DNA from: Octopus vulgaris
Lineage: Eukaryota
Assembly: GCA_951406725.2 (NCBI GenBank)
Contig: OX597837.1
Coordinates: 27,342,001-27,406,000 of the forward strand
DNA length: 64,000 nucleotides
Direction: 5' to 3'
Made by a program: the position numbers and the translations under genes
Notes under the pieces: model-generated
What the model was told of the DNA's origin: nothing
The model's input: the letters and a program-made list of their open reading frames with translations, nothing else
Database searches by the model: none
Shown: positions 3,483-54,957 of the stretch, in pieces
How positions within the stretch are numbered: position 1 is the stretch's first letter
How the letters are laid out: every line of letters starts with the position of its first letter

Positions 3483-4258
3483 AACGGGAAGCTTTATGAA
3501 AATAGACAAAAGACGAAGGCAGGTGGAAAACAAACGAACAATTGTATTAGTATGGCGCTCAGGAAATATAAATAAAACAAGTCTTTAACGTTTCGAGCCT
3601 ACGCTCTTCAACAGAAAGATACACAGAGAGAAAAAAACACAGAAAGAAGGAGAGAAAAAAAATGCGTGCAGTAGCTAACGAATCAACATGGCGATCTGAT
3701 TTCGGCCAGAGGTCAAAGATCAAACATGAGACGCGAGAGCGAAATAGGGGAGATAATAGGGAGATAATAGGGTTGATAATAGGGTTGATAATAGGGTTGA
3801 AGGACCAGCTAATAGTGCGTAGGAGGGGTCTGGACGTGTTGGTGTATGTATGGGTTGGTGTATGTATTAGTATGTATAAGGGTGTGTGTGTGTGTGTGTG
3901 TGTGTGTATGAGAGAGTATTAGTGCGTAGGATTGGTCTGGACGTGCGTATGTGTGGGGTTGGTGTATGTATTAGTATGTATTAGTATGTATTAGTACGTA
4001 TTAGTATGTATAAGTGTGTGTGTGTGTGTATGAGAGAGTATAAGTGCGTATGAGGGGCCTGGACGTGTGTATGTATAGGGTTGGTGTATGTATTAGTATG
4101 TATTAGTATGTATTAGTACGTATTAGTATGTATTAGTTGGTGTGTGTATTAGTATGGCACATCATATATGATGTGATGTGTAAATTCGTGTGGTGTAGTG
4201 AGGAGAAGAGGGGGAGGGGGAGAAGAGGGGGGGAGAGAAGGGGAGGGGAAGAAGAGGA
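3483..4258 (-). mobile_element. Penelope-like element 3' UTR/pseudo-LTR
   Basis: Near-identical reverse complement of 39810-40558; 3' end abuts (TA)n; carries a hammerhead motif. Confidence 0.8.
3582..3619 (-). ncRNA. Minimal type I hammerhead ribozyme motif (variant core CUGUUGA)
   Basis: TCTTT-CTGTTGA-A-GAGC-GTAG-GCTC-GAAA-CG-TT-AAAGA: stem I 5 bp, stem II 4 bp, palindromic AACGTT stem III. Confidence 0.7.
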
Positions 4259-4299
4259 TTGTAATAGAAATTTCCAATAATACAGATTACCATTTGATA

Positions 4300-4634
4300 T
4301 TATTAATTATTGATAATTTTTGGGATAATTTTCAAAATGAAAAGGCCGACATACTTATTTACCGCCGACAGGGAGCTGCGGGGCATATACTGGATTGGCT
4401 CGTGTATATATATTTAATCTAAGGTGTACCCGCTGAAGAAGGCTTCGCCTAGCAACTTATTTTATTTGCTAAAAAAAAGTCTGAAACCATTGGTCCAGGA
4501 GTTAGATGGTAAATGTTTTTATTTTTCATTTCCTTCGATGCATTATCTCTAATAGTGGTTCGGAATTTAACTGTCCTCTCTAGTGTGCAGGTAGTCCTAT
4601 GATGGCTACCTCTTATGTGTTTAAATGTACAATG
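4300..4634 (+). mobile_element. Probable Penelope-like element tail
   Basis: Carries a canonical hammerhead core and ends directly in (TA)n; left boundary uncertain. Confidence 0.55.
4429..4499 (+). ncRNA. Type I hammerhead ribozyme motif, canonical core
   Basis: CCCG-CTGAAGA-AGGCTT...AAGTCT-GAAA-CC-ATT-GG-TC-CAGG. GUC site at 4493-4495; TAGCAA/TTGCTA hairpin in loop II; one mismatch in stem I. Confidence 0.7.
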
Positions 4635-4713
4635 TATATATATATATATATATATATATATATATATATATATATATATATATATATATAGATAGATAGA
4701 TATAGATAGATAT

Positions 4714-4925
4714 GGAAAATAAAACAAGGTAGAAAATGCTAAAATAATTTTATCATGAAGAACATTTTAGTACCGGTTTCAGACTTTGCGACTTTTTCAA
4801 CTTAGACTAAAGCATTGTTTTTCATGCTTTACTCTAAGTTGAATAAATCGCAAAGCCTGATACCGGTACTAAAATGTTCTTCATGATAAAATTATTTTAG
4901 CATTTTCTGCCTTGTCTTATTTTCC
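4714..4925. repeat. Long inverted repeat (~102 bp arms, 8 nt loop), probable inverted Penelope pseudo-LTR pair
   Basis: Arms 4714-4815 and 4824-4925 are near-perfect reverse complements; each carries a decayed hammerhead-like end (GAAACCGGTA / GATACCGGTA). Confidence 0.85.
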
Positions 4926-5559
4926 CTAGAAAATATCAACTCGTGTGTTCTTTTTCAGCCTTCTACATATGTGTGTGTGTCTGAGTGTTTATATATATAT
5001 ATATATATATATATATATGTGTGTGTGTGTGTGTGTGTGTGTGTGTGTGTGTGTGTGTGTATGTATGTATACATGTATGTATATTATGTATGTACATATG
5101 TATATGTGTGTATACATACACATACGTACATACGTACATATAATACGCGTACGTATTCAATTAGGCTCACACATACGCATGCACATACATGCAAATATTC
5201 ACGAACACACAGACCCACATACCCTACGTGCACACATTACACATACAAATAGATGCATTCACATGCACGCACATAGAGTCACCGATATATCAAAGGCGTC
5301 CAATTCCTCCATATCAAATCCATGTCAGATAAATGCTACCGGAAGCATGAAATTGCTCGACCGGAAATACGTGGCTACCATTGATCATTCATTGACAGAA
5401 ATGTACTCCTGGAATCTGGAGTAGAATAAAATATATCACGTGACGCGCACGCACGCACGGGCGCGCGCACGCACACATTGACATACAGATTACGAGAAAA
5501 TTATACTTGGAAGACGTTTTCATTATTAGTAATTATATATTATACATGCGTATATAAGA

Positions 5560-5905
5560 TATATCTATCTATCTATCTATCTATCTATCTATCTATCTAT
5601 CTATCTATCTATCTATCTATCTATCTATCTATCTGTCTGTCTGTCTGTCTGTCTGTCTGTCTGTCTATCTATTTATCTCTATCTATCGATCTGTCTACCT
5701 ACTTACCTACATACCTACCTTCCTATCTACCTACCTACCTACCTACCTACCTACCTTCCTATCTACCTACCTACCTACCTACCTACCTTCCTATCTACCT
5801 ACCTACCTACCTACCTACCTTCCTATCTACCTACCTACCTACCTACATACCTACCTACCTACCTACCTACCTACCTACCTGCTTACTTGCCTGCCTGTCT
5901 GTCTA
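5560..5905. repeat. Compound (TATC)n/(TGTC)n/(TACC)n microsatellite
   Basis: Direct reading. Confidence 0.95.
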
Positions 5906-52458: not shown

Positions 52459-52603
52459 CCTTGTTTTTTTCCGTGTCCCTTTCTGTAGAAGAGCGTAGGC
52501 TCGAAACGTAAATGACTTTTTCTATTCTTGAGCGTTATACTAATACATCTGTTTGTTTTGTACACCACCTGTCTTCGTCTTTTGTTTTTTCGTAAACTCT
52601 CCC
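52459..52603 (+). mobile_element. Penelope tail with hammerhead variant CUGUAGA, inside (TA)n
   Basis: TTT-CTGTAGA-A-GAGC-GTAG-GCTC-GAAA-CG-TA-AA at ~52480-52512; (TA)n on both sides. Confidence 0.75.
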
Positions 52604-53795
52604 TATATATATATATATATATATATATATATATATATATATATATATATATATATATATATATATATATACATACATATACATATATACACACACACAT
52701 ATACATATGTGTGCGTCTGATTTTGAATGAAGTATATGTTGATAAAATTAAACCAAGGGTAAAACATGCGCAGAAGTGGTTGAGCCAGGCTGAGTCATTC
52801 CACCTAAATAGCCACAATTCAATTCCTGAAACTAGTTAAAGAATAAAAAGAAGAAACGAAACGACAGCAAAATATTTGGTACAATTTTTATTCTTGTATA
52901 CAGACATGACATAATTTTATATTTTATTATATATTTTATTTCAGATTTATTTTTTCATTTAAATTCCATTTGATTCTGCAAATGCAGCAAAACAACTGAG
53001 TTGTCGAGTATTTTCAAATATACTTGCACAACGGCCTATATATATATATATATATATATATATATATATATATATATATTGTGTATGCGCGAGTATAAGT
53101 ACGTATGAATATATATATATATATATATATATATATATATATATTTATATATATACACACATATATATATATACATATATATACATATATATACACACAT
53201 ATAGACGTTATATATTATACATACAATAGATTTATTAGACGAATAAACAACCATTTTCTCTCTAATTATTCATGTGCATGTGTGTGGTATGCATGTGTGT
53301 GTGTGTGTGTGTGTGTGTGTGTGTGTGTGTGTGTGTGTGTGTGTATGTGTGTGTGTAGTATAGTGTAGAATTGGCAAGATTTGTGTGATTCTATAAAAGA
53401 GTGAGTCATAATAATGGTTTATGTCAGCAGTCAGAGCCAGCAGTTGTAATGATAATAGTAGAGACTGTTTACTACAGCATTTTGTACACACTCTCTCTAT
53501 ATGTGTGTGCTGAATGCCTAACATATATATATATATATATATATATATATATATATATGTGTGTGTGTGTGTGTGTGTGTGTGTGTGTATAAATTGCATT
53601 TCCTGTGTGTGCAGTTAGATGTACGACTGCTACTGGCGAGTTTAGAGATTTGCCCCGATCATCGCCCTCCAGTGTACTTCTAATAAAGCGGAGTGGTTTG
53701 TACTGTACTTTAGTAGCATTACCAGTTATGCTATATATATATATATATAATAATTATTTGAGGGAATATTATTCCTTATATATATAAATATATAT

Positions 53796-54100
53796 GTGGA
53801 GGCGCAATGGCCCAGTGGTTAGGGCAGCGGACTCGTGGTCGTAGAGTCACGGTTTTGATTCCCAGACCGGGCGTTGTAAGTGTTTATTGAGCGAAAGCAC
53901 CCAAAAAGCCCCACGAGGCTCCGGCAGGGGGTGGTGGCGATCCCTGCTGTATTCTTTCGCCGCAACTTTCTCTCACTCTTTCTTCTGTTGGCCTGCTCGC
54001 TTAGCCAGCGGGGTGGCGTCATTTGAAGGCTAAAACAATGCTAAGCGCATTGTGACCAGCGATGTGTAGCAACATCTAATAGCCTGGTCGGTCACGGTGA
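53796..54100 (+). mobile_element. SINE family B2
   Basis: Full-length; TA repeats on both sides. Confidence 0.92.
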
Positions 54101-54164
54101 TATATATATATATATATATATATATATATATATATATATATATATATATATATATATATATATA

Positions 54165-54410
54165 GTAGCCGCATTATCGTATACGAGCAAAGCCATTGCT
54201 AGAATGAGTGATTGAAATGAGTCATTGATGATGCAATGTGAGGCTCTTGTATGACTCTTGAGTCCGGCCAAAGATTTGCACATTCATTTGCATAATGCAC
54301 AGCCGTGCTGGCTGGCAAAGGGGACAGGTGTCACAGCATGAAGCCTTTTGACATGCCTTTTCAATCCCCTAACTGAAAGGCAAACCTTTCCACAGGTTGC
54401 ACATATACAT
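54165..54410 (-). mobile_element. RTE-type LINE 3' remnant with C2H2-like finger
   Basis: CALCK*MCKSLAGLKSHTRASH; 3' end at (TA)n. Confidence 0.55.
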
Positions 54411-54865
54411 ATAACACACACACTCACACATATATACATGTATGTATATGTCTATAAATGCATACACACGTGTGTGTGTGTGTGAGCGTGTACATAGAGA
54501 GATAAACTCAAACATGCTAAACTGTATGTGGTGTGTGTGTGTGTGTGTAAGTGTATGTGTTTATATCTGTGGTGGAGTAATTAGGATCAAATCGCGAAGG
54601 CATCTCTAATGGGTTTCTATATCGAAAGTATGTTTGCCGTATATTCTCAAGAATGGTGCAAATATATATATATATCTTTATATATATATATATATATCTT
54701 TATTTATATATATATATATATATATATATATATATATATATATATATATATATAGGCATACATATAAATATACATACACGCACACACGTGTGTGGGTGTA
54801 TATCAACTCCTGACATAATTTCGTACACATGTTTATGCTTTTTCAATGGTATTTTTTAAAACTGC

Positions 54866-54957
54866 ACTTCATTTTTGAAGCGCTCTGATGAAGCTATACA
54901 CAAGCACACAAGAGTGCATTGCCTCTTATAGCAGAAACAGGTGTAAGCCAATGAAGT
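54866..54957 (+). ncRNA. Second copy of the 51424-51516 hammerhead
   Basis: Same motif, with stem III CAGGTG instead of CAGCTG. Confidence 0.7.

Follow-up and report, generated by a model that had tools for sequence, protein, structure and literature searches.

Penelope-like elements (PLEs) are known to carry minimal type I hammerheads in their pseudo-long terminal repeats (Cervera and de la Peña 2014, PMC4209133). These hammerheads have a short stem I, a base bulged between positions 9 and 10.1, a G10.1-C11.1 pair and a palindromic stem III, and they occur mostly as lone copies, also as opposite-strand pairs and in a U3-A8 variant. The Naiad clade has been reported without canonical hammerheads, some of its members being flagged as holding a core or half core (Craig et al. 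2021, PMC8557442). In the present study, a 64-kb stretch of the Octopus vulgaris genome (positions 27342001-27406000 of contig OX597837.1; genome of 2.8 Gb), hereafter called the window, was analysed. The window motifs share all the published type I features listed above, the U3-A8 variant being represented by the motif at 48575, and as tail ends of PLEs they are known biology. Judging from the sequences, it seems moderately probable that Naiads across animals carry working non-circular hammerheads (type CSG in nematodes, type SGC in arthropods and a previously undescribed core-opened form in cnidarians, an acanthocephalan and octopus, the last with thousands of copies) and that they are joined by an active Neptune-like family with U at position 6 of the hammerhead core.

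Hammerheads of the non-circular types SGC and CSG have been published almost entirely from metatranscriptomes, the CSG examples being two metagenome sequences (Eckert et al. 2023, PMC10085705), and none in an animal transposon was found in the text and supplement of that paper that were searched. The motifs considered here resemble them in the succession of a cleavage-site block (S), a short linker and a GAAA block (G), in the three crossing stems and in the intact core. By eye, nematode Naiads fit type CSG and three arthropod Naiads fit type SGC, with the extra helix between stems I and II. The octopus form differs in being opened between A9 and G10.1, inside a block that was assumed to be unbreakable; according to the same paper, no insertion of more than two bases is known between these positions. 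In the literature searched, mostly open-access text, no report was found of non-circular hammerheads in Naiads or in animals, of a pseudoknotted hammerhead opened between A9 and G10.1, or of a natural U6 hammerhead.

The half motif near 9760 had been taken in the sequence-only reading for a decayed type I fold, and it turned out to be a clipped copy from a family, here called family X, whose hammerhead is likely rewired. Relatives of family X gave 2,465 exact 18-mer matches (control 0), with 1,086 further matches shared between family X and a second family (control 1). Full copies contain, upstream of GAAA, a strand for stem III, a U-H site and a strand for stem I; the partner of stem III is formed by the bases after GAAA and that of stem I by the bases before CUGAnGA. 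The S block was present in 42 of 61 copies, position 17 being U or C in all 42, and stem I reads CUGUC/GACAG in 33 copies and CUGCC/GGCAG in eight. The order of the blocks is S-G-C, with stems I and III and a short S-G linker as in the ribozymes of Eckert et al. (PMC10085705). A descriptor covering the six non-circular orders gave 30 S-G-C matches in selected loci and two in incidental loci, none in six shuffles and none in the window, where the copy of family X starts just before GAAA, without the S block and the upstream strand of stem II. Clipped in this way, the window copy would not be able to cut alone. More divergent subfamilies of family X, with changed stem I and stem III sequences, were seen in loci L117, L289 and L332.

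In family X, the bases that directly follow CUGAnGA offer no more than a weak plain pairing for stem II, and an upstream strand together with a closing helix fits better. In this structure, the GAAA block finds its partner (GAAGG/CCUUC) in a strand that precedes the S block, a covarying hairpin lies directly before G10.1, and the bases after A9 form a closing helix with a strand located further upstream, where CCCCU/AGGGG is changed to CCCCG/CGGGG in four copies. In 29 copies, this core-opened structure comprises 27 pairs, is 94% paired and shows six pairs changed on both sides. Two-sided changes occupy 33 cells, compared with 11.5 in shuffles (none of 500 reached the observed value) and at most 12 in slid controls, and the duplex energy was below that of the rival pairing in all 29 copies. 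For an extra helix that would connect stems I and II at their far sides, the mean was 4.36 bp in family X versus 4.02 bp in swapped pairs. It is likely from these alignments that full copies of family X hold all the parts of a hammerhead in a non-circular order, opened between A9 and G10.1. The units of family X are 760-930 nt long and arranged in tandem or inverted. In being non-coding, with tandem units and one motif in each, the family resembles the metazoan non-LTR retrozymes (bioRxiv 10.64898/2026.07.22.740005); it differs from them in its unit length of about 760-930 nt, in a rewired instead of a type I hammerhead, and in that most copies are single and clipped.

The 3′ motif of family X also ends the published Naiad_Ovul and Naiad_Obim, and the tie between family X and Naiads consists of this shared motif only. 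The 3′ end of Naiad_Ovul, flagged HHR_half_core in PMC8557442, is near-identical to loci of this genome, and the (TA)n targets are shared with the Naiad clade as well. The present reading departs from the published one in that the half cores are read as whole, rewired hammerheads, and family X departs from the clade in that no open reading frame (ORF) was found in it. The last 500-700 bases of 37 of the 54 published Naiad consensus sequences were surveyed by eye (three names were inferred from the record order), and complete non-circular hammerheads with differing stem sequences were recognised in 17 of the 37 ends. Seven nematode ends are complete CSG hammerheads with a stem II of 4-5 bp, a stem I of 5-6 bp, a stem III of 6-11 bp, a linker of 2-5 nt and the extra stem I/II helix, and three arthropod ends are of type SGC with a long S-G spacer. 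The core-opened layout was found in seven ends, belonging to two corals, a hydrozoan, a box jellyfish, an acanthocephalan and two octopuses. All three layouts are openings of one pseudoknotted circuit.

Family A, represented in the window at 3614, 40427, 52483 and 39220, is far more abundant: a 22-base piece of it has 17,870 exact copies in the genome (control 0), and its downstream anchor has 20,661 matches. Copies extend into the coding end of GIY-YIG. The identity of 99-100% among the 150 scored matches indicates a recent spread. Ten fetched full-length loci are tandem units of about 4.5 kb; the terminal repeats are 97-99.8% identical in the three loci tested, and an intact ORF for reverse transcriptase (RT), linker and GIY-YIG lies between repeats that are 99.8% identical. 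An open frame of more than 1,100 codons was present in eight of the ten loci. The predicted protein matched RVT_1 above the cut-off (E=1.4e-7) and GIY-YIG below it (E=0.006, with the motif visible), and it contains DKG, a CxxxxCxxC linker and a CCHH-type GIY-YIG. A CX2-5CxxC linker, DKG and CCHH are features of Neptune and Nematis (PMC8557442). By its ORF motifs, which are common to these two clades, family A is classified as an EN+ Penelope-like element of Neptune-like type.

In hammerhead numbering, positions 7 and 17 are free to vary. The invariant core CUGAnGA is not kept in family A, where both hammerheads of each of the ten full-length loci read CUGUUGA (20 of 20) and where position 6 is U in 15,233 copies genome-wide versus A in 167. 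The remaining type I features are present: stems I and II, the bulged base, GAAA, the palindromic stem III and the UH triplet. Ninety copies were picked by the downstream anchor and 70 were kept, 20 having been clipped before or inside the motif or being too degraded. U6 was found in 68 of the 70, with position 7 distributed as U29/A23/C12/G6 and position 17 as A56/U12/C1/G1, and between subfamilies only these two structurally free positions vary. At a threshold of seven copies, none of 25 constrained non-CpG columns varied, compared with 43 of 84 flank columns (p=7e-7), and at a threshold of four copies the figures were 1 of 25 and 49 of 84, the flank variability being inflated by the low complexity of the upstream flank. 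A (TA)≥3 run lies within 60 nt of the anchor in 82 of the 90 copies. Contigs assembled from four organisms cover the family A region, with the depth peaking on the hammerhead. An alternative register (U3, N4) was rejected, as stems I and II then no longer adjoin the core.

No covariation was found for the U6 stems; there are 583 stem II variants, mostly with single changes among the 100 listed. A rough tree of 109 rows, not converged, placed the canonical A6 families outside family A and most A6 copies of family A inside U6 subfamilies, with a small cluster of A6 copies among the older branches. It is likely, as far as such comparisons can tell, that the hammerhead fold is under selection in the master elements of family A with U6 in place, and self-cutting is predicted. 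U6 is a substitution in a dominant, recently active family; it is new and had been overlooked in the sequence-only reading. The fixation of U6, even in intact tandem elements, sets family A apart from the hammerheads of PMC4209133. The closest parallel is the A6C hammerhead of phage Bcep176 (PMC3088659, PMC7151607), in which the invariant position 6 is also substituted; that is a single phage sequence with C, whereas here an active retroelement carries U in over 15,000 copies across the genome.

Two further observations touch this family. A repeat of 122 bp that includes CA and TACA microsatellites lies inside its 3′ untranslated region (L081:3587-3913; window 39918-40207), so that the element brings its own microsatellite seeds along. 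A distant Penelope-like fragment with linker and GIY-YIG (L328:7831-8538; relatives in L248 and L028) is about 25% identical to family A.

The type I families other than A are ordinary members of the known kind. Canonical-core motifs number 9,515 genome-wide (150 in the control), among them the sister family of 37378. For family B (37690, 37723), 4,204 copies were counted; many are arranged head to head at a distance of about 50 nt, like the two in the window. Its tandem units of 3.35 kb contain a 727-aa ORF with RWK, DKT in place of DKG and a C-terminal nuclease; no Pfam match was obtained for this ORF. By RWK, DKT, the shortness of the element and the C-terminal nuclease, family B is assigned to the Hydra-type PLEs. 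It differs from the hammerheads of PMC4209133 in that its stem II of 2 bp has an A.A mismatch at the base, and no report of this mismatch was found in the searched text of that paper or in the literature searched. In a comparison of 37719-37756 with L091, L101 and L128, young copies combine U4 with the A.A mismatch, and older ones combine U4C with an A-U pair at this place. A degraded fragment at 41735-42151 (-) resembles the family B ORF (30% identity, E=2e-6). Family C (51443, 54885) gave 22 exact matches, and no ORF was found upstream of these 22 loci. The motif at 48575 corresponds to the U3-A8 variant published in PMC4209133.

The window contains many microsatellites and short repeats, and its features are collected in Table 1. 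The sequence-only reading had proposed twelve type I folds there. A core-like heptamer followed by GAAA is present at all twelve places, and ten of them are type I minimal hammerheads or damaged family copies: seven pass the type I descriptor (cores 3614-, 37378-, 37690-, 37723+, 40427+, 48575- and 51443+), and 4433, 52483 and 54885 are copies of recognisable families, each with one broken pair. The other two, 21565 and 51119, are doubtful, with stem I displaced or C3-G8 broken; neither folds as a hammerhead, and further copies of these motifs were not found in 663 kb of fetched loci. The proposed half motifs at 4760/4860, 39220 and 9760 are real; the one at 26025, which has no relative and no core, was rejected. 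Rfam returned no hammerhead among the 150 listed of 489 window matches and none at the gathering score in six loci, and its microRNA matches are simple-repeat artefacts.

Table 1. Hammerhead motifs and element fragments of the window, in window positions
Feature	Position	Strand	Remarks
Family A (Neptune-like PLE) 5′-truncated 3′ end, abutting a TA run	3477..4257	-	91% identical to the intact unit of L081
Type I minimal hammerhead, U6 core CUGUUGA, family A	3582..3619	-	descriptor; stem I of 5 bp, A bulged, stem II of 4 bp, stem III palindromic (ACGU), GUU triplet
Type I hammerhead, canonical core, long stem II, one stem I mismatch	4429..4499	+	one relative (L224), no ORF link
Two 3′ half-motifs in inverted arrangement, similar to the 4433 family, with TA-rich runs on either side	4715..4925		
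Family X 3′ end, clipped upstream	9489..9770	-	GAAA close to 9764; core, with its stem I strand, at 9734-9728
Doubtful or decayed hammerhead-like motif	21558..21612	+	fails descriptor, no relative
Type I minimal hammerhead, A6 sister family, U4C	37348..37382	-	
Family B (Hydra-type PLE) hammerhead, inverted partner	37657..37694	-	
Family B hammerhead	37719..37756	+	GUA triplet; core canonical; stem II of 2 bp beside an A.A mismatch; stem III nearly palindromic
Family A copy cut short within its core	39220..39275	+	
Family A stretch	39483..40557	+	95% identical to intact unit
Type I minimal hammerhead with U6	40422..40459	+	predicted cut between 40454 and 40455
Type I minimal hammerhead, U3-A8, 5-bp stems I and II	48534..48580	-	one relative (L043)
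Doubtful or decayed hammerhead-like motif (G8A)	51115..51195	+	fails descriptor
Family C type I hammerhead	51424..51515	+	core canonical; stem II loop long and variable; stem III palindromic
Short family A remnant with TA runs on both sides	52458..52603	+	CUGUAGA core with U6; stem I damaged
Second family C copy, one stem III mismatch	54866..54957	+	

The comparison with shuffled controls was carried out on 12 dinucleotide shuffles. With the strict core, three matches were found in the window versus 0.08 expected, and with one core mismatch seven (two of them probably due to chance) versus 0.5-0.6 in shuffles (maximum 3); with two mismatches, the 13 matches versus 4.7-6.1 (maximum 11) are near the level of chance. 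The statement that most carriers end near a TA run was borne out: a (TA)≥4 run lies within 200 nt downstream of eight of the twelve motifs, compared with 22.8% of random positions (p=0.0015), and for (TA)≥6 the background is 16.7% (p=0.00015). Upstream, such runs accompany four and three of the twelve motifs, respectively. The suggested frequency of one motif per 5 kb describes the local density only, as the six exact window matches to four family patterns are about eight times the genome average (about 0.8 per 64 kb). The PLE origin proposed for all the motifs is shown by ORFs for families A and B and, for the 9760 family, is suggested by the motif shared with Naiad; for the sister family of 37378 and for 4433, 21565, 48575, 51119 and 51443/54885, no ORF link was found.

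Family X and the octopus Naiad could alternatively be plain type SGC hammerheads, with stem II formed by the bases right after CUGAnGA and the upstream pairings representing an off-state. Such a fold would leave block C whole, its S-to-G linker of 2-4 nt is like that of published SGC ribozymes, and 96% of cells would allow a stem II of 4 bp. However, two of the four pairs are G.U and none covaries; in 32 Naiad-type copies, the strand after the core gives at most 2 bp in 30, whereas the upstream strand gives 5-7 bp in 21. The plain stem II is absent in the coral, jellyfish and acanthocephalan ends, and it excludes the closing helix, which covaries from U-A to G-C in four copies. The plain SGC fold appears unlikely on these grounds, and the core-opened layout is preferred. 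Several points weigh against the core-opened layout and its wider extension to Naiads. One is the assumption of Eckert et al. (PMC10085705) that breaks in the chain do not occur next to CUGAnGA. The shuffle controls overstate the significance, as the copies of family X are related to each other; the count of covarying pairs was separated from shuffles at only 62/500, and stem II shows no two-sided change within the family. The closing helix is weak in the two octopus ends and looks only about 3 bp long in the octopus Naiad. In the survey by eye, two of the 37 ends were partial and 18 showed nothing in the part seen. No ORF, and thus none of the Naiad kind with N-terminal GIY-YIG, CxC and RT, was found in the tandem units of family X, nor was one found upstream of 31 Naiad-type loci in this genome, and no ORF link was found for five motif families of the window.

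The remaining contrary points concern family A. With the A6C change, hammerhead activity is strongly lowered in Mg2+, and Mn2+ is favoured (PMC3088659, PMC7151607). A lizard element required its protein for cleavage, and its insertion in vitro did not depend on cleavage (PMC11167929). As changes at position 6 are harmful and cleavage can be dispensable, U6 could mark a fold kept for binding. It is conceivable, if on balance doubtful, that the U6 hammerhead no longer cuts and retains its shape as a signal by which the element protein binds or priming takes place, and the lost cutting may have helped the spread; U6 copies do outnumber those matched by the canonical pattern. On the other hand, the variation at positions 7 and 17, with G17 in a single copy of 70, is as expected of a working core, and the block conserved across subfamilies in the runs of four organisms is the hammerhead itself. 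An effect on the host through the cutting of overlapping transcripts by dispersed copies, in favour of which there are tens of thousands of copies and a probable leucine-rich repeat exon in the window, seems quite improbable: lone minimal hammerheads did not cleave as monomers (PMC4209133), one hammerhead needed the element protein (PMC11167929), and most window copies are single, damaged or clipped. A chance origin of the motifs in AT-rich repeat DNA has a negligible likelihood and is already refuted for families A, B, C and X. It would account for the up to 11 matches found in shuffles at two core mismatches and for 21565, 51119 and 26025, which have no support, but not for thousands of family copies versus 0-150 in controls, for the fixed placement relative to element ends, or for the non-circular descriptor matches that six shuffles failed to produce.

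It is highly probable that the motifs are 3′ terminal-repeat remnants of several PLE families ending at (TA)n, and that two families have unusual hammerhead folds, likely selected and predicted to self-cleave. Truncated copies retain the last 100-1000 bases of the element, and in families A and B a full copy is a tandem unit with the order repeat-ORF-repeat. An endonuclease would nick at TA runs, and reverse transcription would start about 120-140 nt behind the hammerhead core and usually stop early, leaving stubs and head-to-head pairs. The paired repeats of a tandem transcript may provide the dimer for minimal type I motifs, and in family A, slow cutting by the U6 hammerhead would be expected, either when two tandem repeats form a dimer or with help from the element protein. 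The RNA of family X and the octopus Naiad would run from a closing-helix strand through the hairpin, a stem II strand, the cleavage-site block, the GAAA block and a stem I strand with CUGAnGA to the second closing-helix strand, and the stacking of the closing helix and the hairpin may keep both core ends together. Having full stems, the rewired motifs could cut as monomers, and they would probably serve, as in other elements of this kind, to release unit-length RNA from the tandem transcript. Copies that are lone or clipped, as most of those in the window are, would be inert.

Several other features were observed in the window. A further type I candidate with a canonical core, a 6-bp stem I and an 8-nt palindromic stem III is located at 63213..63303 (-). 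Six near-identical 146-bp tandem units at 14337-15210 contain CUGACGA and GAAA each and were rejected, having no stems I and III; a piece related to this repeat lies near 15863-15985. Other tandem repeats, of about 98% identity, are found at 35661-36186 (176 bp) and 24481-24744 (129 bp). At least three abundant families of short interspersed repeats are present (433-794, 7076-7493, 23058-23466 and many others), some of them inverted around TA runs. A frame of 250 codons at 58018-58767 (-), with leucine-rich repeats of the ribonuclease-inhibitor/NLR type, is probably a host exon.

If the proposed interpretation is true, Naiads would no longer be an exception, and self-cleaving RNA would be near-general in Penelope-like elements, which sharpens the question of its purpose. 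Non-circular permutations of the RNA would move from a few environmental sequences into animal genomes, type CSG would grow from two sequences to a covarying set, and one wiring would be added beyond the six thought possible. The rewired layout would also explain why descriptor and Rfam searches miss the motifs of Naiads and family X. The U6 family may serve as a natural test of whether cleavage matters for the spread of the element.

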